64,000 nt of DNA from Malacoraja senta (taxonomy: Eukaryota). Where the stretch lies: NCBI GenBank assembly GCA_038087875.1, contig CM075993.1, positions 3,040,001 through 3,104,000 on the forward strand, read 5' to 3'. A program made the translations under genes and the position numbers. This document shows, piece after piece, positions 9,918 to 63,930 of this stretch; positions within the stretch are counted from its first letter, which is position 1; each line of letters begins with the position of its first letter. Under the pieces are notes generated by a model that had not been told where the DNA came from, did not search any database, and saw nothing but the letters and a program-made list of their open reading frames with translations.

Positions 9918-10640
9918 TATTGGGTTGTGTATGTGTGGGGGGGGGAGTGAAACATGATTTTTGTCTCTTCTTTCGGGGGAATGCGACTTTTTCTTGTCGT
10001 ATCCCCCTTCTCTGCCTCCGTCTGCGCCGAGGCCAAAATGGCGGAGCTGCCGGCCTCCAACTCCAACTGCGACCGACCGACCTCGAGGCTCCGGAGGCAG
10101 AGCCAGGACTTACCAGCGCGGGGCTGGCCGGCTTCGGGGCTGCGGTGGCGTTCCGGCGGTGGCGACCGAGGACGCTGGTGGCGACCTGAATCCGGAGGCT
10201 CGGCCGCGGCTGGCCCAGTGGACGACATCGTCGGGAGCTCGCAGGTCACAGGTGGGTGACCTGTTTTTCTGGAGCTCCCGCAACTACAGCTGTGTCCGCT
10301 GGACTGGAGGGCGGCAGCTTCGGCCACCCCGGGCCGCGGAGTTTGAACCGGCCCGTCGCGGACGAAGCACGGATTCACCCGGCGGGGTCACAACGTCAGA
10401 AGCCCGGATCGCCTCAGCGCAGAGGGAGAACAAAGAGGGAAGAGACAGAGACTTTAAGACTTTTGCCTCCATCACAGTGAGGAGGTGCCTGGTGAACTCA
10501 CTGTGGTGGATGTTAATTTGTGTTTATTGTGTGTTTTGTTATTTATTATTATATGTATGACTGCAGGCAACGAAGTTTCGTTCAGACCGAAAGGTCTGAA
10601 TGACAAATAAAGGAATCTCTAATCTCTAATCTCTAATCTC
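9918..10640 (+). mobile_element. GC-rich non-autonomous retroelement (copy A)
   Basis: G-run leader, hairpins at 9975-10007 and 10468-10510, LINE-type tail aatgacaaataaagg followed by (aatctct)n. Confidence 0.65.
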
Positions 10641-10644
10641 TAAC

Positions 10645-10917
10645 GCACATACAAGGCACACAAACTCACACACAAACACACACACAAACTCACACACAAA
10701 CTCATACACAAACTCACACACAAACTCACACACAAACTCACACACAAACTCACACACAAACTCACACACAAACTCACACACAAACACATACAAACTCAAA
10801 CACACGCACGCACGCACACACACAAACTCAAACACGCGCACACAGACACAAACTGAAACATGCACACACAAACTCGCACACTCACACTCACACAAACTCA
10901 CAATCACTCTCACACTC
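10645..10917. repeat. CA-rich minisatellite (cacacaaactca)n
   Basis: Tandem 12-mer units visible 10657-10785, degenerate beyond. Confidence 0.9.
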
Positions 10918-11035
10918 TCGACCCGAAACGTCACCTATTCCTTCGCTCCATAGATGCTGCCTCACCCGCTGAGTTTCTCCAGCATTTTTGTCTACCTTCG
11001 ATTTTTCCAGCATCTGCAGTTCTTTCTTAAACATA

Positions 11036-11210
11036 CAAACCTTTACGTCTTTGGGAGTGGGGGAGGAAACCGGAGCACCCGGAGAAAACCCACGCAGGTC
11101 ACAGGGAGAACGTACACAAACTCCGTACAGACAGCACCCGTAGTCAGGATGGAACCCGGGTCTCTGGCGCTGTGAGGCAGCAACTCTACCGCTGCGCCAC
11201 CGTGCCGCCC
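11036..11210 (-). mobile_element. V-SINE 5' half
   Basis: Reverse complement of tRNA head and V-domain. Confidence 0.8.
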
Positions 11211-12319
11211 TGGCTTAGATAAAAGCGTGTGAGAAAGCAAATGGCAATCCCGGGATGCAGGATTATTGAGGGAATAAGGAAAGTTAAAAAGGGGGAAAGT
11301 TGCAGAAAAGTGCCTTTTGTGTTCGTCGATTCTCTTCAACTTCGGGGAAACTGGACAGATTGGGCCATATTCCCCACAGTCACTGAGTAATACCAATATT
11401 AAAAGGACTCTTATTTCTTGTTTGTTGAGACATTAGTGATGAAAAATACCATCTGGAGCAGAGTAATTATTCAGTACGGTAATCTACTTGGATACATTTA
11501 CAGAAATTGAAAAATTAGCTCTATACTCTCAGTAGTGCATAGTCCAAGCTGCTGCTGGTCGCCACATTCACCCGGGTAAATAAATCTAGTAAGAAGGGTC
11601 CGTTTACCTGCAATAAAATGATCGGGTATTTACATTTCCTCATTTTAACAACGGAATGGCTATTTGCTTTTTTTTAAATGATTGCAGCCTGCATGGTATC
11701 GGTTTATGTTCCTGCTTTCACTGTAAATGGATTGTTGATGGTTGGCACGGACTTGGTATTTATTGTAACCTGATGCTTGGGGAGTGGAGCGTTTAACTTT
11801 AGATTGTGTGACACTTTGCACTAGTACATGCAAACAAATGAATCGCTAATCTTAGAGGCATAGAGTCCTTGAGTCATAGTCTTAAAGTGATACAGCGTGG
11901 AAACAGGCCCTTCAGCCCGACTTGCCCACACCGGCCAACATGTTTAAGAAGGAACTGCAGATGCTGGAAAATCGAAGGTAGACAAAAATGCTGGAGAAAC
12001 TCAGCGGGTGAGGCAGCATCTATGGAGCGAAGGAAATAGGCAACGTTTCGGGTCGAAACCCTTCTTCACACAAAGGGTGGTGGGCATATGGAACGAGCTG
12101 CCAGAGGAGGTAGTTGAGGCAGGGACTATGTTTAATTGCCATTACACAGGTACATGGATAGGACAGGTTTGGAGGGGTATGGACCTAACACAGGCAGGTG
12201 GGACTAGTGTAGCATGGACATGTTGGCCGGTATGGGCAAGTTGGGCCGAAGGGCCTGTTTCTACAAATTATCACTCTATGACTATGACTCAAAGACTCTT
12301 TGTCTCTATGACTCTAACA

Positions 12320-12815
12320 GCTGAACACCTACACTCAGCCCGCCTGAACCAACCTGATCTCCCGGTTGCTAAACACTTTAATTCCCCTTCCCATTCCCAC
12401 ACTGACCTTTCTGTCCTCGGTCTCCTCCATTGTCAGAATGAGGCTAAACGCCAATTGGAGGAACAGCATCTCATATTTCGCTTGGCCAGCTTACAGCCCA
12501 GTGGTATGAATATTGATTTCTCTAACTTTAAGTAACCCCAGCATTCCCTCTCTCTCTATCCCTCCCCCACCCAAGTCGCACCAGCTTCTCATTTTCACCC
12601 AACAAACAGCTAACAACGGCCTGTTTCCTTTATCATCGTTACTTTTCTGCATATCTTTCATTCATTGTTCTTTATCTCCCTACATCACCGTCTATATCTC
12701 TCGTTTCCCTTAACCCCAACCAGCCTGAAGAAGGGTCTCGACCCGAAACGTCACCCATTCCTTCTCTCCAGAGATACTGCCTCTGAGTTACTCCGGCATT
12801 TTGTGTCTATCTACC
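12320..12815 (+). mobile_element. Penelope-like element 3' fragment
   Basis: EHLHSARLNQPDLPVAKHFNSPSH...EEQHLIFRLASLQPSGMNIDFSNFK then UTR and ctgaagaagggtctcgacccgaaacgtc. Confidence 0.85.
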
Positions 12816-13204
12816 ATACCCTGTGTAGGAAGGAACTGCAGATGCTGGTTTAAATCAAAGATAGACACACAAAGCTGGAGTAACTCAACGGGTCAGACAG
12901 CAGCTCTGGAGAGAAGGAATGGGTCCTTCCATTCCTTGACTATTCAATGCTTGTTAGTCTGAAAAGGACTTGTATATTTGTATCTGGTAATCAAATCTCA
13001 CCGTGTACTGGAATATTACCTTAATTCAATGTGAAGAAAGTTAATATTCGGGCCAAGCGCAGATGCTGCTTGGCCCCGCAGAGTTCCTCCAGCAGTTTGT
13101 GTTTGGCTTAACATTCCAGTTTCCACTGTTCATTGTTTCAAGTGCATGAAGGAACTGCAGATGCTGGTTTAAAGCGAAGATAGAGACAAAATGCTGGAGT
13201 AACT

Positions 13205-13460
13205 CTCACAGAGAGTGGTGAGTCGGTGGAATTCTCTGCCTCAGAGGGCGGTGGAGGCAGATTCTCTGGATGCTTTCAAGAGAGAGCTGGATAGGGCTCT
13301 TAAAAATAGCAGAGTCAGGGGATATGGGGAGAAGGCAGGAACGGGGTACTGATTGGGGATGATCAGCCATGATCACATTGAATGGTGGTGCTGGCTCGAA
13401 GGGCCAAATGGCCTACTCCTGCACCTATTGTCTATTGTCTATTGTCTATTGTCTATTGTC
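13205..13460 (+). mobile_element. CR1-type LINE 3' end
   Basis: WNSLPQRAVEA..DAFKRELDRAL coding end; tail (ctattgt)n. Confidence 0.85.
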
Positions 13461-14191
13461 TAACTCAGCGGGACAAACAGCATCTCTGGAGAGAAGGAAT
13501 GAGTGATGTTTCGGGTCGAGACCCTTCTTTGTGGTGTTATTTGTATCGACATGCTCTAACCTTGCTGACCAAGCCCCTCGATAGAATCTTATCACCAGCA
13601 TTGTGGATCTATGCTGAAGAAGGGTCTCGACCCGAAACGTCACCCATTCCTTCTCTCCAGAGATGCTGCCTGACCCGCTGAGTTACTCCAGCATTTTGTG
13701 TCTGTCTATGATCGAACCCTTTTCCTGCGGTGTTTTTGTATCTTGAAGGAACTAATAGGTTGTTTGTCACGCATTGCTTCTCTAAATGCTTTCCGTGGCT
13801 TGTTCTGTCCTCAATATACCCTTCAGTGTGATTTACAATCAACCACAAGTCAACCTACCACATATATTCTCAAAGAAATCCAATAAATGAGTCAAATTCA
13901 GTGCCCCCTTTCATAAATCCAAGTTGAACCTGCTCAAACCTATTATTATTTTCTGTGTGTCATGATGCCACATCCATCCTTTTCCCAATTACCAACGTCA
14001 GGCCAACTGTTCCCTAACTTCTCATCCTCTCCGAAATCTCGCTTCGTACCGGGTGATATACCGCTGCCCCACTGTGCCGCCCGATGTCACTTTCGCCCGT
14101 ATTGTTCCCCGGTTCCAACGCCAGGCTTCTCTGGAGCGACTGCACTCAGGAACACCAACATCTCGCCTCTTTTCCCTTTTCTGCCTGGCTT

Positions 14192-14515
14192 TTAGTTTGC
14201 TTTAGAGATACAGCGCGGAAACAGGCCCTTTCGGCCCACCGGGTCCGCGCCGACCAGCGATCCCCGCACGTTAACACCATCCTACACCCACAAGTGACCT
14301 TTTTTTTCACATTTACCGAGCCAATTCACCTACAAACCTGGACGTCTTTGGAGTGTGGGAGGAAAACGAAGGTCTCGGAGAAAACCCACCCAGGTCACGG
14401 GGAGAAGGTACAAACTCCGTACAGACAGCACCCGTAGTCGGGATCGAACCCGGGTCTCCAGCACTGCGTTCGCTGTAAGGCAGCGACTCTACCGCTGCGC
14501 CACCGTGACCGCCCT
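14192..14515 (-). mobile_element. V-SINE, full length
   Basis: tRNA head with A and B boxes, V-domain and tail on minus strand. Confidence 0.9.
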
Positions 14516-14961
14516 TGGAATATTTCATTCCCCGCTTTGGTGACATTGCAGTGACTGTATATTGAAGCAGCGACCATGAAATCCTACTCCTTAAATCATC
14601 TGTCTCTCTGTGAATGCAGCCTGCATTTAGATGTGGCCTTTTTAACATTCATCCATATTCCGACCCTATTTGTTCCCTGGCTTTCTGTGTCCGCTGCCTA
14701 TTTACTTTGCTTATTCTATTTCTCATTTCTGTTTCCAGTTTTATCTTTTCTTCCACCTCATTCCCCCACCCCCCCCCCCCCCCTTCAGATTTCCATCCCC
14801 CATCCAGACTAGTTTGAACTTCACACGCAAACATTATCACAATCATAAGATATTAGTCCTGATCCTGTTCAGATGTAACACATTCTGCTTGTAATCCACT
14901 GGAAATACAGTAGTCCTAAACATCTCAAATATCTGAAGCCTTCTTCAAACTTAGACTTTAA

Positions 14962-15250
14962 GGCGGCATGGTGGCACAGCGGTAGAGCTGCTGCCGTCCA
15001 GCGGCAGAGACCCGGGTTCGATCCTGACTATGGGCACTGTCTGTTCTCCCTACGATTGCATGGGTTTTATCTGATATCGTTGGTTCCCTCCCACACTCCA
15101 AAGACGTACAGGTTTGCAGGTGAATTGGCTTGATATTATAGTAAATTGTCCCTAGTGTGTGTAGGATAGTGTAAGTGTGCTGGGATCACTAGCTAGCGGG
15201 GACTCGTTGGGCCGATGAATGCTGTATGTCTAAATGAAACTAAACTAACC
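14962..15250 (+). mobile_element. V-SINE, diverged
   Basis: B box ggttcgatcc, V-domain, ctaaac tail. Confidence 0.8.
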
Positions 15251-16274
15251 ACTAATGCGCACCATGCGCGCGTCGTGCGTTGTGACGCGTAAATGATGTC
15301 GCGTAAATTACGCGCAAATGACGGCCAAGTGGGACAGGCCCTTTAGAGAAGTCAATGTCCATACCACTGGGGTGTAAGATGCTCAAGCGAAAAGATGAGG
15401 TGCTGTTCCTCCAATTTGCGTTGGGTCTCACTGATTTGAAACTTGCATTTGCAAATGGCATCCATGTGCTGCAGATTTCTGTGCACATAAGGCCGTATTA
15501 GTTCCTTAGTTGGCACGGTGACTGCACTCCGAGCAAGTACTCAGGCAAGTTTTCAGGCAACTGAATCATCCTACCACAACCAGAGAGCTGTGCTGAACTT
15601 CCATCTGCCTCGTTGGTGACCCTCGGACTATCCTTGATCGGACTTTGCTGGCTTTACCTTGCACTGAGCGTTATCCCCTTCATCATGGATCTACACACTG
15701 TGAATAGCTCGATTGTCAAGTCAAGGCAAGTTTATTCGTCACATACACACACGAGATGTGTAGTGAAATGAAAAGTGGCAATGCTCGCGGACTGTGCAAA
15801 AAAAACAAACAACCAAACTACAAACAGAATGGAACAGAATCACATATTTACATATTACATATTTGTGGGAGGGAAGAAAAAGAAAAAAAAACAGCAATTT
15901 TAAAAAGACACCCCACAACAGTAAAATGGTTCAGTAAAGTTAGTCCCTGGAGAGACAGGAGTTAACAGTCCTAATGGCCTCTGGGAAGAAACTCCTTCTC
16001 ATCCTCTCCGTTCTCATGATTGTAATCATGTATTTAGGTTAGTTTAACGTTAGAGCATGGAAACAGGCCCTTCGGCCCACCGGGTCAGCACCGACCAGCG
16101 ATCCCCGCATATTAACACAATCTTACACCCAGCAGGGATAATTTTAACATTTAATACAACAAATAAGCCACAAACTGTGTTGTCTTTCCGCTGACTGGAT
16201 AGCACGCAACAAAAGCTTTTCACTGTACCTCGGTACATGTGACAATAAACTAAACTGAAACTGAAACTACTAAA

Positions 16275-16520
16275 TACACCCCAGCGGTATGAACATTGAC
16301 CTCTCCAATTTCAGGTAGTCCCTGCTTTCTCCCTCCTTCCCCTCCCCTTCCCAGCTCTCCCACAGCCCACTGTCTCCGCCTCTTCCTTCCTTCATCCCGC
16401 CCCCTCTCCCCCCACCCCCACATCAGTCTGAAGAAGGGTCTCGACCCGAAACGTCGCCTATTTCCTTCGCTCCATAGATGCTGCCTCACCCGCGGAGTTT
16501 CTCCAGCATTGTTGTCTACT
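16275..16520 (+). mobile_element. Penelope-like 3' end with hammerhead-like motif
   Basis: PSGMNIDLSNFR end, pyrimidine-rich UTR, CTGAAGA-agggtctcgaccc-GAAA-cgtc at 16428-16455. Confidence 0.8.
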
Positions 16521-17096
16521 TATTCGGATGTAAGGTGCTTCAGAACATTTCGAGTCTCTCCGACGTTAGTGTCCCAAGGGCGAAAATCATCTGTTAGTGA
16601 CATTAATTAGCGGACATTCAGAAAGTTTGTTTACTGGCTAGTGTCCGCCTTCACTGTTGAGGGACGTGACCTATGTAAAATAAAGAGGTTAATGCCTGTA
16701 ATTAAATAACAGGCAGAGGAATGTCAAAATATTAGAGCTTTCTTTTGTATCGTTCGAGTCATTTCACTCTGTGCACCATAATCCTTTAAACCTGTCCACC
16801 ATGTTAATATTCAGCAGCTATTTTTTACTACAAAGGTGACTCTATCATCCTTGCTTACTTGTCCTGCTGGCTGGGGCGTTAGCATTACAGTGCTGCGGAC
16901 TTATCTGAATTCATTGTCACTGAGGTTGTCTTCAATGAATGGAGCAGTCTAATGTTTGTGTCAATTGCATTCTGAACCATTACCTCAGCCACATGAGTCT
17001 ACATTCTAACCATAGCTGAGGAGAAATTGAAATTCAAGGCAGTGAATGGAATGCAGATTATTTTCTTTGCAAAAATAAAAAGGACTTTTAGTAATA

Positions 17097-17590
17097 TCGT
17101 GGCTTGGTTCGGCAACTTGAGCGCCCAGGAGCGGAAAAGACTGCAAAAAGTAGTAAACACTGCCCAGTCCATCATCGGCTCTGACCTCCCTTCCATCGAG
17201 GGGATCTATCGCAGTCGCTGCCTCAAAAAGGCTGGCAGCATCATCAAGGGCCAACACCATCCTGGCCACACACTCATCTCCCCGCTACCTTCAGGTAGAA
17301 GGTACAGGAGCCTGAAGACTGCAACGACCAGGTTCAGGAATAGCTACTTCCCCACAGCCATCAGGCTATTAAACTCAACTCAAACAAAACTCTGATCATT
17401 AATAGCCCATTATCTGTTTATTTGCACTTTATCAGTTTATTTATTCATGTGTGTATATATTTATATAATGGTATATGGACACACTGATCTATTCTGTAGT
17501 CATGCCTACTATATTCTGTTGTGCTGAAGCAAAGCAAGAATTTCATTGTCATATCTGGGACACATGACAATAAACTCTCTTGAATCTTGA
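17097..17590 (+). mobile_element. Rex1/Babar-type LINE 3' fragment
   Basis: IVAWFGNLSAQERKRLQKVVNTAQSIIG...GRRYRSLKTATTRFRNSYFPTAIRLLN, typical of Rex1/Babar C-termini. Confidence 0.8.
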
Positions 17591-17894
17591 ATATAGCCTT
17601 TAGATTTTTGTAAAAGCCAACTTCATTTATTCACGCCCTTCAGATATGGGGAGAAGGCAGGAACGGGGTACTGATTGGGGATGATCAGCCATGATCACAT
17701 TGAATGGCGGCGCTGGCTCGAAGGGCCGAATGGCCTACTCCTGCACCTAATCCTTACCATCTGTTTAAGGGGGTGAGCCTGGCACTGGGGACTGGAGAGA
17801 ATCAGGCCTTGTCTACAAGGGTGGCACGCTGGTGCAGTGCCAGACACCCGGGTTCGATCCTGACTACAACAAAAACGAAACTAATACACTCAAT

Positions 17895-18490
17895 GGGCAG
17901 CACGGTGGCGCAGCGGTAGAGTTGCTGCCTTACAGCGCTTACAGCGCCAGAGACCTGGGTTCAATCCCGACTACTGGTGCTGTCTGTACGGAGTTTGAAC
18001 GTTCTCCCCGTGACCTGTGTGGGATTTCTCCAAGATCTTCGGTTTCCTCCCACACTCCAAAGACGCACAGGTTTGTAGGTTAATTAGACAATAGACAATA
18101 GGTGCAGGAGTAGGCCATTCGGCCCTTCGAGCCAGCACCGCCATTCAATGTGATCATGGCTGATCATCCCCAATCAGTATCCGGTTCCTGCCTTCTCCCC
18201 ATATCCCCTGACTCCGCTATCTTTAAGAGCCCTATCTAGCTCTCTCTTGAAAGTATCCGGGAGAACCGGCCTCCACCGCCCTCTGAGGCAGAGAATTCAC
18301 AGATTCACAACTCTCTGTGTGAGAAAGTGTTTCCTCGTCTCTGTTCTAAATGGCTTACTCCTTATTCTTAAACTGTGGCCCCTGGCTTGGGTATAAGTGT
18401 AAATTGTCCCTAGTGTGTATGTGGGGATCACTGGTCGGCGCGGACTCGGTGAGCCTGTTTCCGCGCTGTATCTCTAAACTAAACCAAACT
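17895..18490 (+). mobile_element. V-SINE interrupted by an antisense CR1 fragment (about 18085-18384)
   Basis: SINE breaks at ggttaatt and resumes at ggcttgggtataag. Confidence 0.8.
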
Positions 18491-24680: not shown

Positions 24681-24777
24681 TCAGTGGGCAAATGGAGGTG
24701 GGTCACCCACGAACTAATTGAACAGGGGATCGGGATCAAGGAACCAGGCAGTCTTTTACCATTGTGTTAAAGAAGGA

Positions 24778-25704
24778 GGAGCCGCCATCTTGGAGGAACG
24801 GCTGCTAAACAGCGGCCGTCCGTCAAATTCACTCTTTCTTTAGTTTAGCGTTTTTTATTTCTTTGTTTGTTTGGGGGATTTTTACTTTTAATGTGGCGGG
24901 GTAAGGGGGTAACTATTTCTGGGTCCCTACCTGGTCGGTGAGGCAGCTTTTTCTCCGGGCTGCCTCGTCGACCCGTCCTCGTGGCCTACCAGCGGGCATG
25001 GAGCGCCGTTTCCTGACGTGGACCGCCCAGCACCTTCAGCTTCGGTGGCGGCACAGCGCTGGAGCGCTAACGTGGAGCGATGCCTTGCCTGGATCGCCGC
25101 GCTGGATCGACGCGCTGGAGCTCCGGTGAGCTGGACCGCCGAGCTCAACACCTCCGGGCTGCAGGACTGCGGCGCCGACTCCAACATCGGGAGCCTCGTG
25201 GCTCCAAATCGGCGCGGCCCTGTCGGCTTCAGGTGCCATCGACTCCGCTGGGAAACCGGCCGTTCCAGCCGCTGCGAGGACTCTCCCGACGGCCAGGAAC
25301 ATCGGGCCTCCGTAGAGGCAACTGTGGCGGCCTCGATGGGCCTGACTCTGGGGAGAACTGGGTTGGGGACTGGACGTTGTGCCTTCCCCCACAGTGGTGG
25401 TCATTGTGGGGGGATGATTTCTGTGTGCTGTGCCTGTTAGTCTGTGTGCAAGATGGCGGTCGGAGGGGAGAGTGGACGCTGGCGCGAATTGGTCGCCGCT
25501 GCTCTCTCCTCAAATTGTGTTTCTTATTTTCTTTTTGTGCTCTTGAAATTGAATTCTGTCCTTGATTTGTGTACCGTGGTGTTTTTATATTTGATTTATT
25601 CCAATTATGTGTTTTGTATTTTTTTGTGATTCTATGTCTTGTAAGGTGTCCTTGGGTTTTAGAAAGGCGCCAGTAAATAAAATGAATTATTATTATTATT
25701 ATTA
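24778..25704 (+). mobile_element. GC-rich non-autonomous retroelement (copy B) with L2-type tail
   Basis: 11-bp direct repeat ttaaagaagga at 24767-24777 and 25705-25715; tail gtaaggtgtccttgggttttagaaaggcgcc...(att)n. Confidence 0.75.
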
Positions 25705-25949
25705 TTAAAGAAGGAACTGCAGATGCTGGAAAATCGAAGGTAGACAAAAATGCTGGAGAAACTCAGCGGGTGCGGCAGCATCTATGGAGCGAAGGAAATA
25801 GGCAACGTTTCGGGCCGAAACCCTTCCGGGTTTCGTCCCGAAACGTTGCCTATTTCCTTCAGGGTTTCGGCCCGAAACGTTGCCTATTTCCTTCGCTCCA
25901 TAGATGCTGCTGCACCCGCTGAGTTTCTCCAGCATTTTTGTGTACCTTT
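25705..25949. mobile_element. Palindromic Penelope-derived non-autonomous element (its first bases lie at 24764-24777)
   Basis: Core is the reverse complement of the 2674 core; near-perfect direct repeat agtcttt(t/c)accatt at 24750-24763 and 25950-25963. Confidence 0.75.
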
Positions 25950-26244: not shown

Positions 26245-26782
26245 TTTAGTTTAGAGATACAGCATGGAAACAGGCCCTTTGGCCCACCGGGCCCACGCCG
26301 ACCAGCGATCCCCGCGCACTAACACCACCCTACACACAGTAGGGACAATTTGCAATTTTACCGAAGCTAATTAAAGGCCTGTCCCACTGTACGAGGCAAT
26401 TCAAGAGTTCTCCCGAGTTTCCCCTGATTGGAACTCGGAGAATTACGGTAATAGCCATTTCTAGGTACTCGGGGGCTCTCGCGGACATTTTGCACGGTGC
26501 TGAAAAAACGTCACGAGTTTCCGCGTTTCCTGAGTACCTGCCGTTAGCGTTATGAGCCGCTACGAGACATCCCCGAGCTCCGACGTACCCGCTACGTACA
26601 TTCTACGTACTTACCATGAATTTGATTTTTTTTAAACTCGGGAGAGCTCTTGAATCACCTCGTACAGTGGGACAGCCCCTTTAGTCTACAAACCCGCACG
26701 TCTTTGGATTGTGGGAGGAAACCGGAGCTACCGGAGAAAACCCACGCAGGTCACGGGGAGAACGTACAAACTCCACACAGAC
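26245..26782 (-). mobile_element. V-SINE split by a MITE
   Basis: SINE tail 26245-26373 and V-domain 26681-26782. Confidence 0.8.
26374..26680. mobile_element. Harbinger-type MITE
   Basis: TIR aaggcctgtcccactgtacgagg / cctcgtacagtgggacagcccct; TTA both sides. Confidence 0.88.
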
Positions 26783-26860: not shown

Positions 26861-27548
26861 TCACAATCACAATCACAATAATACATTATTCGCCAAATAC
26901 GTTTTGCAACATACGAGGAATTTCATTTGCCAAGTCAGTCATACAATTAAAAAGCAACGGAACACGCAAAACACATTTTAACATAAACATCCACCACAGT
27001 GACTCCTCCACATTCCTCACTGTGATGGAAGGCGAAAAAAAAGTTCAAATCTCTTCCCTTTGCTCTCCCGCGGTCGGGGACCTCGAGCCCTCCGTTGACG
27101 GGAGGATCTTGACTCGGGCCCTCCGCGTCGAGGCAATCAGCTCCCGCATCGGGGGGGATGTCAGCTCCTCCGCGCCGGATGATCGAACCCCACGTCGGGG
27201 CTGGTCGAACGTTGGAGCTCCCGACATCCACGGCCTCTCCCGATGTAAAGACCGCAGGCCGCGGTTGGAGCGATCCCAGGCAAGGGATCAACTCCGATGT
27301 AAGTCCACGCCCCGCGATGGGGCCCAAGGTCAGTCCGAGGAGGCCTCCAGCTCCATCGATGGTCGGCCGCAGAGCGACCGGAGAATGCGATCCGAAAATT
27401 AATCGCATCTCCGGCAAGGTAGGAAACTGAAAAAAAGTGTTTCCCCTGACCCCCCCCCCCACATAAAACAAACCGGAGAACATTTACACAAACTTTTAAC
27501 ACACGCTAAAAACAAACAGCGGGGCTGCCAATCGAACGCCGCTCCTGG
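26861..27548 (-). mobile_element. GC-rich non-autonomous retroelement (copy C)
   Basis: Hairpins at 27380-27412 and 26990-27029, G-run leader, (gtgatt)n tail on minus strand. Confidence 0.65.
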
Positions 27549-28179
27549 ATGTACTGTGGCTACTGATTTCAAGAGAGAGTTCGATTTAGCTCTTAGGGCT
27601 AAAGGAATCAAGGGATGTGGGGAAAAAGCAGGAACGAGGTAGTGATTTAGGATTTAGACAAAAGTGCTGGAGAAACTCAGCGGGTGAGGCAGCATCTATG
27701 GAGCGAAGGAAATAGGCAACGTTTCGGGCCGAAACCCTTCTTCAGACTAGTGATTTGGAATGATCATATTGAATGGCGGTGCTGGCTCGAAGGGCCGAAT
27801 GGCCTTACTCCTGCACCTATTTTTCTCTGTTCTGCGTTTCTCTTCTGTCAGGATAATTGGAGAGCGAGCCGGCTGAGAGGGGAGCGTGACTGGACTGCCT
27901 CTCTTCCTTCGGGCCCCAGAACACTTCTCATGAACCTTTCTCCTGGAGGCGACTTGAAGGAACATCAGCAAAATGGAGCATCGTGGTAAATTAAATCATG
28001 TCAAATTGAATCTGACAGCCTGTGACAAGGGAGTCATGAGCAGATGGTACATGGTAGACAGTTGCTACAGGGAGGTCTGTGTCCTTCAGATGTTCTTCTG
28101 CCCAATGGACTTTACAGAACCATAATCACTAAACTATTTACTTTGAAGATGGAAGTTTATCTCCTAGGCAGCAGGTAGA

Positions 28180-31785: not shown

Positions 31786-31789
31786 TTGA

Positions 31790-36187: not shown

Positions 36188-36712
36188 GATTCAAGATTCA
36201 CGATTCAAGAGAGTTTATTGTCATGTGTCCCAGATAGGACAATGAAATTCTTGCTTTGCTTCAGCACAACAGAACATAGACGGCATGAATACAGGACAGA
36301 TCAGTGTGTCCATGTACCATTATATAAATATATACACATATGAATAAATAAAACAGATGAAGTGCAAATAAACAGATAATGGGCTATTAATGTTCAGAGT
36401 TTTGTATGAGTTGAGTTTAATAGCCTGATGGCTGTGGGGAAGTAGCTATTCCTGAACCTGGTCGTTGCAGTCTTCAGGCTCCTGTACCTTCTACCTGAAC
36501 GTAGTAGGGAGATGAGTGTGTGGCCAGGATGGTGTGGGTCCTTGATGATACTGCCAGCCTTTTTGAGACAGCGACTGCGATAGATCCCCTCGATGGTAGG
36601 GAGGTCAGAGCCAATGATGGACTGGGCAGTGTTTACTACTTTTTGCAGTCTTTTCCGCTCCTGGGCGCTCAAGTTGCCGAACCAAGCCACGATGCAACTG
36701 GTCAGCATGCTC
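36188..36712 (-). mobile_element. Rex1/Babar-type LINE 3' fragment
   Basis: ORF 36394-36708 SCIVAWFGN...FPTAIRLLN; (tgaatct)n-like tail. Confidence 0.82.
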
Positions 36713-41029: not shown

Positions 41030-41740
41030 GGCCCAGTGCCGACAAACGTTCATCGTAGGTTAACCCACTCATTCCTGGGATCATTCTTGTAAATCTCCTC
41101 CGGACCCTCTCCAGAGCCAGCACATCCTTCCTCAGAAATGGTCCCCAAAATTGCTCACAATATTCCAAATGTGGCCTGACCAGTGCCTTATAGAGCATTA
41201 CATCCCTGTTTTTGTATTCCAGCCATCCTGAAATACAAGATTCAAGATCCAAGAGAGTTTATTGTCATGTGTCCCAGATAGGACAATGAAATTCTTGCTT
41301 TGCTTCAGCACAACAGAACATAGTAGGCATGAATACAAAACCGATCAGTGTGTCCATATACCATTATATAAATATATACACACATGAATAAATAAACTGA
41401 TAAAGTGCAAATAATGGGCTATTAATGTTCAGAGTTTTGTCCGAGCCAAGTTTAATAGCCTGATGGCTGTGGGGAAGTAGCTATTCCTGAACCTGGTCGT
41501 TGCAGTCTTCAGGCTCCTGTACCTTCTACCTGAAGGTAGCGGGGAGATGAGTGTGTGGCCAGGATGGTGTGGGTCCTTGATGATACTGCCAGCCTTTTTG
41601 AGGCAGCGACTGCGATAGATCCCCTCGATGGAAGGGAGGTCAGAGACGATGATGGACTGGGCAGTGTTTACTACTTTTTGTAGTCTTTTCCTCTCCAGGG
41701 CACTCAAGTTGCCGAAATAAATGCTAGCATTGAGTTTGCT
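41030..41740 (-). mobile_element. CR1 RT fragment interrupted by a Rex1/Babar 3' fragment (about 41237-41716)
   Basis: LYKALVRPHLEYCEQFW (CR1) and RKRLQKVVNTAQSII...AIRLLN (Rex1/Babar). Confidence 0.8.
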
Positions 41741-46772: not shown

Positions 46773-46809
46773 AATTCTTTTCGTTACTGCTTTCTGGTAA
46801 CAAAACATA

Positions 46810-49444: not shown

Positions 49445-49868
49445 TCTCCCTCTCCCTCTCCTCTCCACCCTTTCCCTCTCCCTCTCCCTCTCCCTCTCTC
49501 ACTCCCTCTCCCTCTCCCTCTCCCTCTATCCCCCTCTCCCTCTATCCCCCTCTTTCCCTCTCCCTCTCATCCCTCTTATCCCCCTCTCCTCTCTCCTCTC
49601 CTCTTCCCCTCTCCTCTATCCCCCTCTCCCTCTCCCCCCTTGTCCCTCTTCCTCTCTCTCTCCCTCACTCCCTTTTCCCTCCCTCTCCCTCTCCCTCTCC
49701 TCTCCCTCTCTCTCTCTCTCCCTCACCCTCTCCCCTCTATCCCCTTCTCCCCCTCTCCCTCTCCCTCTCCCTCTCCCTCTCCCTCTCCCTCTCCTCTCTC
49801 TCTCCCTCCCCCCCCCTCTCTTTCTCTCTCCTCTCCCTTTCCCTCTTTCCCTCCCTCTTCCACTTCCC
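49445..49868. repeat. Polypyrimidine low-complexity tract, (ccctct)n-like
   Basis: About 420 bp almost entirely C/T. Confidence 0.95.
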
Positions 49869-50227
49869 ATCACTGTGCTTGCATTGTTCCGTTGCCAGGG
49901 AGTCAAACAGGAACTTAATCCGCCAGGGAGCACAAACAATTGATGTGAGCCTTGTGCAGAGCATAAAACCCAGTGTGGGTCTGATGAACTCATGCCTGTG
50001 TCTGCAGTGAATACTACAAGGTATTAAGAGATTGGATTTTGAATAAAATGTCCTTTGCATATTAACAGGAGATAACACTGGCCTGCAGCGGGACTAGTCG
50101 ACGTTAATGTTGGATGACTTTTCAACATCCACGCTATTATTAAGTGGGACAACAAATTAAATAATTCGATGAGAATATGGAGCATAAAAATAGCTGGCAA
50201 AGTTCAAGGGACACAATTGAAAGTTAC

Positions 50228-50955
50228 AATAGACAACAGACAATAGGTGCAGGAGTAGGACATTTGGCCCTTCGAGCCAGCACCGCCATTCAATGTGGTC
50301 ATGGCTGATCATCCCCAATCAGTACCCCGTTCCTGCCTTCTCCCCATATCCCCTGACTCCGCTATCTTTAAGAGCCCTATCCAGCTCTCGCTTGAAAGCA
50401 TCCAGAGAACCTGCCTCCACCGCCCTCTGAGGCAGAGAATTCCACACACTCACAACTCTCTGTGAGAAAAAGTATTTTACCAAATGATGAAAGGCTTGGA
50501 TAGAGTGGATGTGGAGAAAATAACATGACAAGCGTTTGTCGGCACTGGGCCTGTATTCGTTGGAGTTTAGAAGGACGAAGGGGGTACCTCATTGAAACTG
50601 ACCGAATAGTGAAAGGCTTGGATGTGGAGAGGATTTTTCCACTCGTGGGAGAGTCTAGGACTAGAAGCCACAGCCTCAGGATTAAAGGACGTTCCTTTAA
50701 GAAGATGAGGAGGAATTTCTTTAGTCAGTGGGTGGTGAATCTGTGGAATTCATTCCCACAGAAAGCTGTGGAGGCCAAGTCAATGGATGTATTTAAGGCA
50801 GAGATAGATAGATTCTTGATTAGTACGGGTGTCAGGGTTATGGGCAGAAGGCAGGAGAATGGGGTTAGGAGGGAGAGGTAGATCAGCCATGATTGAATGG
50901 CAGAGTGGACTTGATGGGCCGAATGTCCTAATTCTACTCCTATTCCTTATGACCT
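50228..50955. mobile_element. Two opposed CR1 3' fragments
   Basis: Minus-strand copy 50228-50472 and plus-strand copy 50485-50955 with RRNFFSQWVVNLWNSFP. Confidence 0.8.
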
Positions 50956-51009
50956 ATCACTCTGTCTCCTCATTGGTACCATAGCAACATTTAATAGACA
51001 AAATGTTTT

Positions 51010-51377
51010 GAGAAGGAACTGCAGATGCTGGAAAATCGAAGGTAGACAAAAATGCTGGAGAAACTCAGCGGGTGCAGCAGCATCTATGGAGCGAAGGAGA
51101 TAGGCTGGGTCAAGATTAGAAAATTGTACTTGGCAATTAGCTCGGAGCTGAGAAATTCACCAGCCTGTGTTATGTGGTTCCTTTGTCAATCAGTGGCTAG
51201 GAAATCTATCTGGAGAAACTCAGCGGGTGCAGCAGCATCTATGGAGCGAAGGAAATAGGCAACGTTTCGGGTCGAAACCCTTCTGATGGGGTGCGAGAGA
51301 TATTTATTGTTGCCTATTTCCTTCGCTCCATAGATGCTGGCTCACCCGCTGAGTTTCTCCAGCATTTTTGTCTACCT
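51010..51377. mobile_element. Penelope-derived composite carrying a copy of 56058-56167
   Basis: 51101-51210 is the reverse complement of the flank of the 55840 element. Confidence 0.8.
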
Positions 51378-51768
51378 GACATTTATAGAAATTGAACATA
51401 GACATGGATAGGAACGGTTCAGTGGGATTTGGGTCAAACGTGGGCCAGGTGGGATTAGAATTTGTGTGAAGGGATGGTTGATGGTTGGCACGGACTCAGT
51501 GGGCTGAAAGGCCCGGTTATCCTGCTGTATCCCTAAATGTATAAAATATTCAACTTCATTGGAGTATTATTTCTCCCGTGTTCAGTCAATAAATCGACTC
51601 CAGTGTTGGTGGTGGGAGGAAATGCTGGCAATCACTTTAAATCACCAAACACAGATATCCCACAGAATAACTTCAGGACAGGATGTTCTGTGAAATTAAT
51701 AAGTTTACAATCTTCCTAATATATAATACTCTCTACATATTTGGCATTGTGCGTTTGCTCAGGGTAAT

Positions 51769-52024
51769 GGCCCTGTCCCACTGTACGAGCTAATTCAAGA
51801 GTTCTCCCGAGTTTGCCCTGATTGATCGACTCGGAGAATTACGGTAATGGCCGCTCGTCGGTACTCGGGCTCTCGTGGACATTTTTCAACGACTTCACGA
51901 GTCTTCACGAGCTTACCGCGGTTTCCCGAGTACCTGCCGTTAGCGTTGCGAGCCGCTAAGAGACGTCCCGAGCTCCGACGTACCCGCTACGTACATTCTA
52001 CGTGCTTCCACGAGTTTGATTTTA
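51769..52024. mobile_element. Harbinger-type MITE, right end truncated by CR1 sequence
   Basis: Left terminus ggccctgtcccactgtacgag; body matches the 26374 family. Confidence 0.75.
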
Positions 52025-53595
52025 CCACAGGGGCCACAGTTTAAGAATAAGGGGGTAACCCATTTAGAACGGAGATGAGGAAAAACTTTTTCCAAAGAGA
52101 GTTGTGAGTCTGTGGAATTCTGTGCCTCAGAGGGCGGTGGAGGCAGGTTCTCTGGATGCTTTCAAGAGAGAGCTAGATAGGGCTCTTAAAAATAGCGGAG
52201 TCAGGGATTATGGGGAGAAGCAGGAACGGGGTACTGATTGGGGATGATCAGCCATGATCAATTGATGGCGGTGCTGGCTCGAGGGGTCGAACGGCCTACT
52301 CCTGCACCTATTCTCTATTGTCTATTAGTAAGATCCCATAAACAGGAATATGATACAGGTTGCAATTAATTGCTGGATAAACATTTGGCAGGGAACATGG
52401 GTAACTTTCCCTTAGAAAGACACAAAAAGCTGGAGTAACTCAGCAGGTCAGACAACTTCTCTGGAGAAAGGAATAGGTGGCGTTTGGGGTCGAGACCCTT
52501 CTATCTTCAGTTTGAACCAGCATCTGCAGTTCCTTCCTACACATTAGTTCCCTGCTGTTTTTACAATGGAGTTTTTGAATCATGTATTGTCTCTCCGCTG
52601 ACCGGTGAGCACGCAACAAAAGCTTTTCACTGTACCTCGGTACGTACAGTAAACTAGTGTTGGGTCACAGACAGCCTGACTGTCTTATGACGTCTCTAGA
52701 CTCTCTTTCTACACAGTACGATCACGCAACCTAATCTCTCTCGACTATTAACCTCTACATACTCTATTAGGACTCTGAAGTCCTTCTAGTCTCTACCTTG
52801 ACTCTCTACATCTATCTGAGCATAGGTTATTTAATTAGCAGGAATTAAATTCAGCAGTTGCCTGGCGGGATTTGAACCGGGATCTCTGGTCTAGACTCGG
52901 GATTACTTGTCCAGTGATATTACTACTCTGCTGCAGAAGGAGATAAGGACTTGGGCATGCCATCCAGGAGAAGCAATTGAATAATTACTTAAATGTACTT
53001 GCGATTCTCTTGTTCTTACTGCTATTCTCCTCAGTAGTTTTCAGCTGCTGGCTCTGGAAGGTGTTATATCTGCTGACAGGTGACACCTCTTATCTGAAAT
53101 TACTCATTTGCAGTTCACAAACCTGCTTGATTTCAGCTTGCACAAAGTCACGGGCTAATTTGAAGGTGTTATTTTAGGCTATTACTGCAGTTCCCCAGCC
53201 GTCGATTAACATGTGGGCAACATGCAATTTTGGAAAGTAATTATACGCTGTGTATCTGTCTGTGGACGGTACAAACCAAAAGGAGTCCTTTTAAAAAAAA
53301 CAAAAACGAACAGGTTTCTCTTGAGCGGGAGTGGTCAATGAGAGGGCGGGAATCCCATTAGTTTAAGAAGGAACTGCAGATGCTGGAAAATCGAAGGTAG
53401 ACAAAAATGCTGGAGAAACTCAGCGGGTGAGGCAGCATCTATGGAGCGAAGGAAATAGGTGACGTTTCGGGTCGAAAAGTCCTGATACGAAATGTCACCT
53501 GGTTTAGTTTTAGAGATACAATGTGGAAACAGCCATTCAGCCATCAAGTCCATGCTGACCATCGATCATTCTATGTTACCCCCCTTTTTGGATCT

Positions 53596-54295
53596 AGAAA
53601 CATAGAAACATAGAAACATAGAAATTAGGTGCAGGAGTAGGCCATTCGGCCCTCGAGCCTACACCGCCATTCAATATGATCATGGCTGATCATCCAACTC
53701 AGTATCCCGTACCTGCCTTCTCTCCATACCCCCTGATCCCTTTAGCCACAAGGGCCACATCTAACTCCCTCTTAAATATAGCCAAAGAGCTGGCCTCGAC
53801 TACCCTCTGTGGCAGAGAGTTCCAGAGATTCACACTCTCTGTGTGTGAAAAAAGTTCTTCTCATCTCGGTTTAAAGGATTTCCCCCTTATCCTTAAGCTG
53901 TGACCCCTTGTCCTGGACTTCCCAACATCGGGAGCAATCTTCCTGCATCTAGCTGTCCAACCCCTTAAGAATTTTGTAAGTTTCTATAAGATTCCCTCTC
54001 AATCTCCTAAATTCTAGAGAGTATAAACCAAGTCTATCCAGTCTTTCTTCATAAGACAGTCCTGACATCCAGGAATCAGTCTGGTGAACCAGGTGTGGTC
54101 TCACCAAGACCCTGTACAACTGCAGTAGAACCTCCCTGCTCCTATACTCAAATCCTTTTGCTATGAAAGCTAACATACCATTCGCTTTCTTCACTGCCTG
54201 CTGCACCTGCATGCCTATTTTCAATGACTGGTGTACCATGACACCCAGGTCTCGCTGCATCTCCCCTTTTCCTAGTCGGCCACCATTTAGATAAT
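53596..54295 (-). mobile_element. CR1-type LINE RT fragment with internal deletion
   Basis: QRDLGVMVHQSLK...KANGMLAFI...LYRVLVRPHL; (tagaaaca)n tail. Confidence 0.85.
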
Positions 54296-55307
54296 TTACA
54301 CACTTTGGGCAATTTTTACAGAAGCCAATTAACCTACAAATCTGCAGAGGGTTTCGGCCCGAAACGTTGCCTATTTCCTTCGCTCCATAGATGCTGCCTC
54401 ACCCAGCTGAGTTTCTCCAGCATTTTTGTCTACCTACAAATCCAGGCGTCTTTCGAATGAGGGAGGATACCGGGACAATGGGAAAAAGCAGGTCACGGGT
54501 GAGAACGTACAAACTGCGTACAGACAAGCACCCGCAGTCAGGATCGAACCTGGGTCTCTGGCGTTGCAAGCAGCAACTCTACCGTTGCGCCACCGTGCCG
54601 CCCTACCTCTGCGTCACGTACACTGACCTAACTCAGGCATACATCATGAGATTCTGAGAATCATGAGGAAAAATAGCTCTTCGTGCTAACGGAATCAAGG
54701 GATATGGGGAGTAAGCAGGAACGGGGTGATCAGCCATGATGGTGGTGCTGGCTCGAAGGGCTGAATGGCCTACTCCTGTACCTATGTTTCGAAAATGGGA
54801 GATCCTATTCCCTGATAAACATTGACAGACATCCGGAGTTTTGTAGCTGTCTGGTAATTCCAGCGTCAATGATGATAGTTTTTAATTCCAGATTTATTTA
54901 ATTGAATTTAAATGGCCCACCACTGCCAATGGTGGGATTGAAGCTTAAATCTTCAGATCATCGGTCTGGCTTTCTCCCTTCCTAATCCCCTAACATACAC
55001 CACCAGGCTACCAGCATCCCTCGTGTCTGACATGATGGAGGATTGGCTTTTCACTTTCTTCATTTTAATAGTTTTAAGTGCTTTAAAATTAATTAAGATT
55101 AGTTCATGAGCCACATTGTATTAATTTTAATTTCTGCAAGAAATTAATGCAAGATCCCCTGCGTTCCAACATGAGGCCAGAGGATTTAATGGAACACGCT
55201 GAAAGAGCTACATAAACATATGGAGATTGGAATTACAAGACCCTTTCGTGAACCATCTTAAGAATCTTTGGGGGGTCACGGATTTTGATTGCAGGGGCCG
55301 AGAGTTA

Positions 55308-55705
55308 AGCCCCTGTCCCACTGCGGCGACCTAATTGGCGAGTTTAGACGAGTTTGCCCTCGACTCATACTCGCAGCATGAGGTCCGAGGAGGTCTTTGT
55401 AACTCTCCTGCATGCTCGAGAGTAGTCCCCGCGTACTCGAGGCCTCAACTAGGTTGCGCCGTATTTTGCAAAATGCCCGCGAGTAAAAAAATGTCGCCAT
55501 GGAAAAAATCGATACTTTTTTTACTCGTAGGTTTAGTAGGTCGGCATGTTGGTCGTAGGTAATCGAGGGGAGTCGAAGGTAGTCGTAGATAGTCTTCATC
55601 ATAGTCGAAGGGAGGTCGAAGGAGGTCGTCTTCACTCTCCTCTATTCGGTGTCCAATTTTCCCCCGAAGTTAGTGGAAGGAAGTCTTCAACATGACACTT
55701 TTTCA
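55308..55705. mobile_element. Harbinger-type MITE, right end missing
   Basis: Left terminus agcccctgtcccactgcggcgaccta after TTA; body matches the 21633 family. Confidence 0.75.
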
Positions 55706-55839
55706 GTTCAGTTGCCTGATAACAGCTGGGAAGAAACTGTCTTGGTTGTTATCAGGCAACTGAATCATCCTACCACAACCAGAGACAGTTGGGAGTGAGA
55801 AAATGACATGAAACCAGTGCAGATCAGATAGATTTTCTA

Positions 55840-56055
55840 CGTTTGCAGATGCTGGAAAATCGAAGGAAGACAATAATGCTGGAGAAACTCAGCGGGTGCA
55901 GCAGCATCTATGGAGCGAAGGAGATAGGCAACGTTTCGGGACGAAACCCTGAAGGAAATAGGCAACGTTTCGGGACGAAACCCGGAAGGGTTTCGTCCCG
56001 AAACGTTGCCTATTTCCTTCGCTCCATAGATGCTGCTGCACCCGCTGAGTTTCTC
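55840..56055. mobile_element. Palindromic Penelope-derived non-autonomous element
   Basis: Same core junction as 2674; exact 15-bp direct repeat cagatagattttcta at 55825-55839 and 56056-56070. Confidence 0.8.
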
Positions 56056-56384
56056 CAGATAGATTTTCTAGCCCTGATTGACAAAGGAACCACATAACAC
56101 AGGCTGGTGAATTTCTCAGCTCCGAGCTAATTGCCAAGTAACAATTTTCTAATCTTGACCCAGCCTAATGACAAATCTTTAAAATAACTCAACCATTCCC
56201 TACCACGCAGTCAGTAGCATTGCTTACTTAATGGAAACTGTTTTGCGGAATGCCATAATTCATTATGTGCTTGTAGAAAGCTGTGTACACCCACTCTCCA
56301 CACTGAAAGAGACACTAATGCGCGCAGGGAGGCAGCATTAATGATCGCTCTCTTGTTATCGCGAGTAAATTTATGTCACAGTTA

Positions 56385-56705
56385 AACCCCTGTCCCACGG
56401 CACGAGTTCATTCCAAGAGCACTCCCGAGTTTGCCCTGATTCGAACTCGGAGATTTACGGCAATGGCCGCTCGTCGGTACTCGGGGCTCTCGTGGACATT
56501 TTTCATCATGTTGAAAAATCTTCACGAGTCTTCCCGTGCTTACCTGCCGTTAGCGAGTCTTCCCGAGTACCTGCCGTTAGCGCTAAGAGACGTCCCCGAG
56601 CTCCGACGTACCCGCTACGTTCATTCTCCGTGCTTACCACGAGTTTGATTTTTTTTAAACTCGGGAGAGCTCTTGGAATGAACTCGTACAAGTGGGACAG
56701 GGTGT
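56385..56705. mobile_element. Harbinger-type MITE
   Basis: Same family as 20351; TTA on both sides. Confidence 0.85.
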
Positions 56706-57161
56706 TTAGTGATGCAAGAGCGGCCATGCGACATAGGACTTTGGCAACTGAATGGCAGATCACCTCATTCTGCAGTTTAAAGCAAGGCTAATCTTGGCAC
56801 TAGATTGCTGGAGTAACCCAGCGGGACAGGCAGCGTCTCTGGAGAGAAGGAATAGGTGACGGTTCGGGTCGGGACCTTTCTCCAGACTGAAACGTCAACC
56901 GTTCCTTCTCTCCAGAGATGCTGCCTGTCCCGCTGAGTTACTCCAGCATTTTCTGTCTATCTTCGATTCAAACCAGCATCTGCAGTTATTTCCTACACAT
57001 CTAATATCGGCACGGTGACGCAGCAGTAGATTGTGGGACGAGAGCACAACACAGTAGATATTGGGACGGTAGCTCAGCGCAGCTATGGTCTGGAGACCCA
57101 GGTTCAATCCTGACTACGGGCGCTGTCTGTACGGAATTGTTAATTCTCCCTGTGACCACGT

Positions 57162-57192
<31 letters not shown>

Positions 57193-57789
57193 ACATTCCA
57201 AAGACGTGCAGGTTTGTATGGTTCTGTAAATTGTCCCTACAATGTCCGATAGAACTAGTGTATAGCCTGGTTGTTGGCAGGTGCAGACTAGATGGGCCGA
57301 AGGGCCTGATCCCATGATGTATATTCCACAACTGTACATCTCCTCCACCTTCTGTCGTGGGGTATTGGGACTCCGCAATCTTTAAACATCCCCAATCCTT
57401 TCCACTCCCCATTTTAATTTCATGTTTCATGTATTTTGTGTTTTTATGAGTTTATCCCTCCTAGGATAAATAAAGTTCTATCCTATCACTTTGTATCGTA
57501 TTGTATCATATCTCTAAGCTAAACTAAACTAAACTTATAAGGACACTTTTCACCTCCTTATCAGATCATCAAGGAGACAAAAAATGCTGGAGAAACTCAG
57601 CGGGTGAGGCAGCATCTATGGAGAGAAGGAATTGGCGACGTTTCGGGTCGACACCCTTCTTCAGTCTGAAGATAGAGCATGCAAACAGGCCCTTCGGCCC
57701 ACCTAGTCCACTCCGACCAGCGATCACCCGCTCATACTAGTTCCAAGTTATCCCACTTCCGTATACACTCCCTATTCGGGGCAATGAAC

Positions 57790-58636
57790 ACAACACAATA
57801 CCGTTTATTATCATTTGGACCTCAAATGAAGTTCAAACAAAATTTGGTTTCTACAGTCATACAACAAGAAAAGAACCAAGACACAACACAATTTACACAA
57901 ACATCCATCACAGTGAATCTCCTCCTCGCTGTGATGGAAGGCAAAGTCTTGTCTCTCCCCTGCACTCCCCATTCTCCTCCCGATGTCAAAGTCAAAGCCC
58001 CCGACGGGCGATGGTAAGTAAGTCCTGCGGCCATTAAAGCCGCGCCGGGCGATGCAAGGCCGTGCTCCGGGTCTTGATGTTGGAGTACCCGGCGGGCGCT
58101 AGCAAGTCCCGCGGCCATTAAAGCCGCGCCGGGCGATGTAAGACCCCGCTCCAGGTCATCTTCAACCCCGCAACTCGGGCGGGAGTAGCTGCCGTTGCGG
58201 GAGCTCCGAAAAGCGGTCTCCCACCAGGGACCCGCGAGCTCCCGATGTCAACGTCCACCAGACCTGCGGCCGGAGCCTCCGAATCTCCGGGGGCCGGGTC
58301 GAAGCCGCGCGCCACCACAGCTCTCCACGCTCCGAACTCGGCCAGCTCCACGATGGTGAGTAAGTCCGCAGGCTCCGCGACTGGAGCCCCAGGTCGTTCC
58401 GGTTTTGAGGCCTCTCCACGGTGCTAGGCCCCAACGACAACGGAGACCCGACAGAGAAAGGTCGGGTCCTCCACACAGGGAAAAGATTTTATAAGTTTCC
58501 CCACCCACCCCCCACACATACCCAGTTAAAAAAAAACACTATACACTACACACTACACTCAAACGAGACAAAAAAAATTTAAAAAGACAGACGGTCTGCA
58601 GAGGCCGCTGCCACGTGGGTCGTGCCGCCTACCGGA
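57790..58636 (-). mobile_element. GC-rich non-autonomous retroelement (copy D) inside a V-SINE
   Basis: Hairpins at 58442-58472 and 57904-57938; tail aatgataataaacggtattg; internal ~40-bp duplication. Confidence 0.65.

Positions 58637-60553: not shown

Positions 60554-63930
<3,377 letters not shown>

Follow-up and report, generated by a model that had tools for sequence, protein, structure and literature searches.

Four GC-rich elements, copies A to D, lie in a 64,000-nucleotide (nt) stretch of Malacoraja senta contig CM075993.1 (the window), and they raise the question of what kind of retroelement they are and how it could be mobilised. A sequence-only reading had described them as one structure-conserved, non-autonomous family that switched its partner long interspersed nuclear elements (LINEs). 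The copies lie where that reading had placed them, and so do their two hairpins, G-runs, gcct(t) motif and tails. Based on the analyses below, there is about a two in three chance that the copies are diverged subfamilies of one non-autonomous retroposon superfamily, transcribed by RNA polymerase II (Pol II) and headed by LINE sequence, with a structured core and exchanged tails. With the same confidence, the layout would open with a short head of Rex1/L2-type LINE 5′ sequence, from which a T/GT tract leads to a conserved core, and would close with a LINE 3′ tail. In the core, a G-run with GAAAC precedes hairpin 1, and a variable body rich in CpG separates this hairpin from a purine tract and hairpin 2, while the tail comprises a stem-loop, AATAAA and a microsatellite. 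The model thus shifts from a headless to a LINE-headed element, because LINE-type 5′ heads, an internal second head in B and a long-range helix, all missed earlier, were recognised.

BLAST joined A, C and D, whose best pieces reached E values of 1e-9 to 1e-14, whereas B gave no match to them at E 0.01. The earlier remark that the copies align poorly thus applies to B, which needs a profile or shuffle test, and not to the other three. In local alignments of single domains, each scored against 500 shuffles, the 5′ domains of B and C were similar at z 10.0 (0/500 shuffles as high), and the hairpin-2 domain of B resembled those of C (z 6.5; 0/500) and D (z 6.0; 1/500). Similarity between A and B was weak over three domains (z 2.6, 0.8 and 1.5; 12/500, 122/500 and 46/500), and only A–D was strong (z 18.9) among the six pairs of GC-rich bodies. 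Moreover, leave-one-out profiles recovered every copy, and the A/C/D profile found B collinearly at 24810–25435 (E 2.7e-8), the match ending before the B tail. Additionally, relatives of B carry GGGGGAAAC, as do C and D. Collectively, the collinear profile match and the shuffle-controlled alignments demonstrate that the four copies are homologous in their core, with B differing 3′ of hairpin 2. A profile search found no fifth copy in the window. The core was not found in 18 fish-like loci (L002–L019; ~45 kb, too little DNA to speak for other fish), and the hairpin-2 pattern had 0 loci in viral contigs and 0 in metagenome contigs; its one match in prokaryote genomes (L001) was taken as chance.

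To characterise the 5′ ends, we compared the heads with the CR1-group consensus library of PMC13343379, taking the first 400 nt of each consensus. Of 19 skate Rex1 heads, 11 start with ATGGCG, and in five a T/GT tract comes after GGCGGC-N10-GCAGCGGC; two of five skate L2 heads start with CCAAGATGGCG; the Rex1 and L2 heads have the common layout AAGATGGCG...GC hairpin...T tract. Copy D opens in the Rex1 manner, with GGCGGC-N12-GCAGCGGC and then a T tract, a pattern with one match in the window and none in 100 shuffles. The motif AAGATGGCGG occurs twice in B, inverted at the 5′ end and forward at 25450, and these are its only two occurrences in the window against 0.10 expected; we take it to be YY1-like. 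Because the forward motif opens a GC hairpin and a T tract, the last 255 nt of B look like a minimal LINE head-plus-tail unit. The outer heads of B and C resemble LINE heads by eye only, and B, C and D begin at comparable distances 5′ of the G-run, with head-like sequence. Core motifs had no exact matches in the library heads apart from a generic 8-mer, GGGGAAAC. The motif-level matches of D and of the internal head of B suggest that the head may derive from a LINE 5′ end.

At the 3′ end, the D tail is similar to the three reverse transcriptase (RT)-linked Rex1 tails of the window (z 5.1–6.4), and D carries both a Rex1-type start and a Rex1-type tail. Three 5′-truncated copies, all of the same Rex1-type family and nearly identical in their tails, lie at 17000–17580 on the plus strand and at 36210–36710 and 41255–41720 on the minus strand, and they match the RT frame of locus L012. 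This locus is the one of 18 found with a pattern built on the A tail that has RT directly upstream; most others are short truncated tails or lie at a contig edge. L012 contains RVT_1 and PF09004, a domain set that we assume to be a mark of Rex1, and its N-terminal frame resembles a skate Rex1 consensus by eye. The core is absent from the window's three RT-linked Rex1 3′ ends and from L012, and the Rex1-tail pattern had 0 matches in viral contigs. Among the four tails, a signal was seen only for A–D (7/500) and B–C (16/500; both AT-rich repeats). Neither the A/C/D profile nor any of the RT-linked Rex1 tails matches the B tail, and related variants of this tail occur in reads of two other organisms. 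As judged from these alignments, an exchange of tails between copies is supported. Of the proposed family with switched LINEs, the noncoding nature, homology, shared core and different tails stand, and the partners are identified in part.

Reads were mapped to copy B only, in 4 of 21 runs, and B-like sequence was high-copy in three organisms (A, C and D, a lettering separate from that of the copies). In organism A, summed contig depth was 0.2–1.4 million over most of B, from about the left target-site duplication (TSD) to the tail. The B core reached a depth of 5e5 in organism D and 9e4 in organism C, where the flank contig had 24 and 39; the core is thus three to four orders above it, which corresponds to roughly 1e3–1e4 copies as a crude figure. 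The head and tail bins of B were much lower than the core in organisms C and D, which may reflect divergence or other tails, between which short contigs cannot tell. Furthermore, B-type elements are represented in polyadenylated RNA of organism D, where 9,845 of 7,335,232 reads (~0.1%) map to B; 7,148 of the reads, being less than 90% alike, come from relatives and not from this copy. First mates are strongly biased to the minus strand (hairpin 1: 3227 minus vs 251 plus; internal head: 1707 vs 63; 13–27:1), which indicates sense RNA on the assumption that the library has the common orientation. Splicing was dropped, as the RNA joints, among those listed, lack GT–AG ends.

The copies are neither coding nor derived from a small RNA. 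Six open frames across A–D contain no Pfam family, and one frame of B had no homologue among 317 candidates, limited to near lengths, so a coding origin was rejected. No tRNA or Rfam match was found within any copy by ARAGORN or Rfam, the Rfam hits in the window being sub-threshold microRNA matches outside the copies. These negatives bear out the earlier statement that the copies have no tRNA head and no credible open reading frame (ORF). An ATG directly follows hairpin 2 in all four copies (10508–10510 in A, 25413–25415 in B), without a credible frame. No head contains an A box with a B box after it at tRNA spacing, and T runs of 4–9 occur in every copy within the first 150 nt. The elements are thus not short interspersed nuclear elements (SINEs) in the strict, polymerase III (Pol III) sense, with no tRNA, 5S or 7SL head, no A–B box pair and early runs of four or more T. 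They are not autonomous LINEs, having 0 Pfam families in six frames, and not strict bipartite non-autonomous LINEs, since they share a core that has no match in the library heads and carry unrelated tails. The bodies contain 64–68% GC with a CpG observed/expected ratio of 0.95–1.07, compared with 0.64 for the window, and the word CATCG is over-represented in three copies, with 3 occurrences in B, 4 in C and 6 in D (5, 2 and 0 of 500 shuffles as high), but not in A.

Based on folding in 60-nt windows, hairpin 1 is more stable than its shuffles in all copies (z -6.0 in A, -3.7 in B, -5.0 in C and -3.9 in D). Hairpin 2 gave z -4.2 in A, -2.6 in C and -3.7 in D, and for B no window reached the -2.3 cut-off. 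The two hairpins had been described as covarying, and this holds for hairpin 1 in A, C and D: stacked from the loop, it has 11 pairs, of which four are changed on both sides and none is broken, in a comparison of three sequences with the register set by hand and no significance test. Its bulge lies at a different place in each of these copies. For hairpin 2, covariation was overstated: 47 of 48 cells pair, 7 of 12 pairs are invariant and one is changed on both sides, and the covariation score was reached by 92 of 500 shuffles, which is not significant. Hairpin 2 is therefore mostly just conserved. Among B relatives, 25401 is C in 35–95% of depth, which turns the loop-closing G·U of hairpin 2 into G–C. 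An alternative register for hairpin 1 of B was dropped, as the longer stem named earlier is the minimum free energy (MFE) structure and aligns with C. A loop–loop kissing interaction and an H-type pseudoknot in B, both considered by eye, were also dropped, the former as not general and the latter for its short linker.

Beyond the hairpins, pairing is possible between the pyrimidine tract 5′ of hairpin 1 and the purine tract 5′ of hairpin 2, which would enclose the GC-rich body. This long-range helix appears in the whole-element folds of A (17 pairs) and B (~15 pairs), where it is made of unrelated sequences. In a narrower duplex test, picked afterwards, the cognate pair was favoured only in A (-22.2 vs -15.0) and B (-21.1 vs -14.1); the 12-bp helix of D came second best in its row, and C failed. 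The folds suggest that the helix may close the body in A and B, possibly in D and not in C, and we treat it as a lead rather than a result.

The features of the four copies are collected in Table 1. TSDs flank two of the four copies, A and B, the latter with the 11-bp duplication reported earlier; none was seen at C or D. AATAAA is present in A, B and D and as a variant in C, and terminal tandem repeats occur in all four. The right TSD of B runs into a repeat end present at five other window sites, and B therefore landed at the end of that SINE-like repeat. At 58640–58679, just 5′ of D, the host SINE contains a 19-nt tandem duplication that perhaps formed at insertion.

Table 1. Positions of the four copies and their parts in the window.
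Feature	Position	Strand	Remarks
Copy A	9916–10639	+	5′-truncated, no head; Rex1-type tail architecture
A left TSD, 6 bp	9910–9915	+	right copy 10640–10645 overlaps tail repeat unit in part
A G-run	9935–9945	+	
A long-range helix, 5′ strand, 17 bp	9958–9974	+	partner 10435–10451; pair probabilities 0.82–1.0
A hairpin 1, pyrimidine loop	9975–10007	+	
A purine tract (long-range helix, 3′ strand)	10435–10451	+	
A hairpin 2	10468–10510	+	
A tail	10557–10639	+	stem-loop 10578–10603, AATAAA, 7-nt repeat
Copy B	24778–25704	+	full length; at end of another SINE-like repeat
B left TSD, 11 bp	24767–24777	+	right copy 25705–25715
B inverted AAGATGGCGG motif, LINE-start type	24782–24792	-	complementary to 25449–25459; paired in fold, p 0.95–1.0
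B 5′ hairpin with CAGCGGC, then T-rich tract	24795–24830	+	
B long-range helix, 5′ strand	24918–24932	+	partner ~25360–25374; p 0.4–0.99, central pairs at least 0.9
B hairpin 1	24933–24973	+	
B hairpin 2	25386–25412	+	
B internal second head: CAAGATGGCG, GC hairpin, T-rich tract	25449–25530	+	resembles skate Rex1/L2 5′ ends
B tail: stem-loop, AATAAA, (ATT)n	25641–25704	+	
Copy C	26861–27548	-	apparently full length; head ~27548–27510, G-run from 27462, tail from 26942
C hairpin 1	27377–27415	-	
C hairpin 2	26990–27029	-	
Copy D	57787–58636	-	apparently full length, within tRNA-headed SINE; internal duplication of 57–74 nt
D Rex1-type start GGCGGC-N12-GCAGCGGC, then T/GT tract	58604–58629	-	
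D possible long-range helix, 5′ strand, 12 bp	58475–58486	-	partner 57952–57963; not in whole-element MFE fold
D hairpin 1	58442–58472	-	
D hairpin 2	57904–57938	-	
D Rex1-type tail	57787–57860	-	similar to RT-linked Rex1 tails of window

Several observations weigh against the reading of the copies as LINE-headed Pol II retroposons with a structured core. Exact 9–12-nt words from the heads had 0 matches in the library heads, so the likeness of the heads is at motif level only. Regarding the tails, Rex1-like ends had been claimed for A, C and D, and the claim holds for D; the A tail is weakly similar to L012 only (z 2.9; 8/500), and the C tail is similar to none of the six tails compared. The B tail is presumably of L2 type; no L2 3′ end was found in the window or in the loci retrieved, and B-tail patterns had 0 matches in viral contigs in two scans. 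The copy numbers rest on the B type. No RNA start site was called in the polyadenylated reads, and host transcripts ending at the tail AATAAA could give the same strand bias. Concerning structure, the whole-element MFE folds of C and D lack the long-range helix, and the first 48-nt cognate/non-cognate duplex test favoured the cognate pair in A only and failed for B, C and D. Moreover, B relatives in organisms C and D have A at 24964, in the 3′ strand of hairpin 1, at 68–98% of depth among the variants listed; as the loose-end consensus shows no change in the 5′ strand, this is probably a G·A mismatch.

If the copies are LINE-headed retroposons, the head and CpG-rich body would act as an internal Pol II promoter, and the RNA would be polyadenylated at the tail. 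The ORF2 protein of the partner LINE would then bind the tail stem-loop, with insertion by target-primed reverse transcription; recognition of a stem-loop by ORF2 protein has been shown for zebrafish L2 (PMC4176376). Tails may be swapped by template switching, which in B would have appended the whole minimal head-plus-tail unit of a second LINE 3′ of hairpin 2. As for the core, it most likely acts at the RNA level: the long-range helix would loop out the fast-evolving body and set hairpins 1 and 2 side by side, and the resulting compact, stable RNA could compete for ORF2 protein.

The same family and mobilisation can be combined with a core kept as a DNA-level promoter, made up of a CpG island, repeated CATCG words and the G-run, with hairpins that are inherited or incidental and inert as RNA. 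This is improbable in our judgement, even though it suits the CpG ratio near 1, the CATCG enrichment in B, C and D (not A), the non-significant covariation of hairpin 2, the failure of the long-range helix in C and the probably uncompensated change that dominates hairpin 1 of B relatives in two organisms. It does not explain why hairpin 1 has 4 of 11 pairs changed on both sides and none broken in A, C and D, why the long-range helix is built from unrelated sequences in A and B, or why B relatives restore a G–C pair in hairpin 2. Less probable still, the copies would be truncated or internally deleted autonomous Rex1/L2 elements, and the core a long structured 3′ (or 5′) untranslated region (UTR). 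Rays have the highest Rex1 coverage according to PMC13343379, and the library comparison took in the first 400 nt of each consensus and so no 3′ UTRs; yet the three RT-linked Rex1 3′ ends and L012 lack the core, its motifs have 0 exact matches in the library heads, and one core is joined to unrelated tails. A UTR joined to the core could lie among loose ends of B relatives beyond those listed, but B, C and D start comparably far 5′ of the G-run with head-like sequence, and B lies between TSDs, with the depth of its family starting there. That B is unrelated to the others, its hairpins being convergent and no tail switched, has been largely refuted: the z of 10 for the B–C 5′ domain, those of at least 6 for the hairpin-2 domain of B with C and D, the collinear leave-one-out match at E 2.7e-8 and the GGGGGAAAC of B relatives outweigh the missing BLAST match at E 0.01 and the weak A–B scores (z 2.6, 0.8 and 1.5).

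The preferred reading of a LINE-headed superfamily has a stronger form, in which an undescribed vertebrate Pol II retroposon superfamily has a structure-conserved RNA core (hairpin 1, the closing long-range helix and hairpin 2) as its functional unit, a portable device capturing ORF2 protein from Rex1 and L2; the family would then number tens of thousands of copies and account for about 0.1% of polyadenylated reads. This form we put forward tentatively, and it is rather doubtful. The copies themselves are real selfish elements, abundant, expressed and structurally unusual, and no analysis gave an indication of a host function.

The window is repeat-rich, with tRNA-headed SINEs and CR1 and Rex1 fragments; its commonest SINEs are presumably ray and skate families. 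An abundant SINE-like repeat with CTGAAGA...CGAAAC occurs at 25706–25947, 27660–27745, 57580–57660, 56900–57000 and other sites, with only sub-threshold microRNA matches in Rfam; we presume a likeness to the hammerhead core of Penelope-type elements. Palindromic elements at 7232–7660 and 26376–26680, with GGCCTGTCCCAC-type ends like those of miniature inverted-repeat transposable elements, lie inside tRNA-headed SINE copies. The ARAGORN tRNA-Trp at 14965–15035 is the head of a SINE copy, which we take to be HE1/V-SINE-like, and not a separate tRNA gene. On the minus strand, the segment at 59930–60315 presumably resembles the 5′ UTR of RTE/BovB-type elements and has a short tail; it may be a bipartite derivative of RTE. 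One Rex1-type 3′ end is interrupted by a GC-rich, CpG-rich insert of 570 nt at 5640–6210, which has no relation to copies A to D; the tail resumes at ~6210. A 3.4-kb pure CA run (60550–63950) and a run of N (~2280–2490) may be an assembly artefact or gap.

The literature searched, mostly open papers, with Repbase and Dfam outside the search, yielded no account of a family like this in cartilaginous fish; an unnamed or mislabelled repeat-library entry for elements of this kind is quite likely. In the annotation of ray and skate genomes, the elements probably go under Rex1, L2 or unknown, and they may inflate LINE counts there. From one subfamily to the next, with their different LINE tails and no Pol III head, it is mainly the structure of the core that has persisted. 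What conserved SINE bodies do and where they come from is described as an open question in PMC5786205, and the elements, if correctly interpreted, would offer a testable case for the role of such bodies.

Known systems share parts of this organisation, as far as the accessible portions of the papers cited describe them. The SINE superfamilies CORE, V, Deu, Ceph and Meta (PMC5786205, PMC7245038) likewise consist of families with one core and different LINE tails, but they have tRNA, 5S or 7SL heads with Pol III promoters, none of which was found here. Two further likenesses were compared by description only: bird SINEs (PMC7245038) share with B a GC-rich sequence before a bipartite LINE unit, although the bird families use RTE, and copies of the coelacanth CoeG-SINE (PMC4255032), called a tRNA-SINE there, are of similar length at 1.0–1.4 kb. 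Closer in kind are the mollusc LINE-promoter (LP) SINEs (PMC4758252), whose 5′ head comes from a LINE and not from a small RNA, and which have a body, TSDs, a polyadenylation signal before tandem repeats, module exchange by template switching and presumed Pol II transcription. Their head is a ~70-bp Nimb/RTE-type sequence, whereas the heads here resemble Rex1/L2, and the present elements differ further in their vertebrate host, their greater length (0.7–0.9 kb) and a CpG-rich multi-hairpin core that, as far as tested, does not come from a tRNA-SINE domain. The bipartite ORF-less LINEs (RIME, NARTc, Bov-A and Vingi derivatives; PMC5786205) share LINE 5′ and 3′ ends, the lack of an ORF and probable Pol II transcription, and the last 255 nt of B look like one of them; in contrast, a core of 500–600 nt stands between or before the LINE parts here. 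The accessible part of the same review lists ORF-less LINE derivatives for RTE, Ingi, Vingi and R2 and not for Rex1 or L2, and the Rex1/L2 case, if true, would extend them to the CR1 group.

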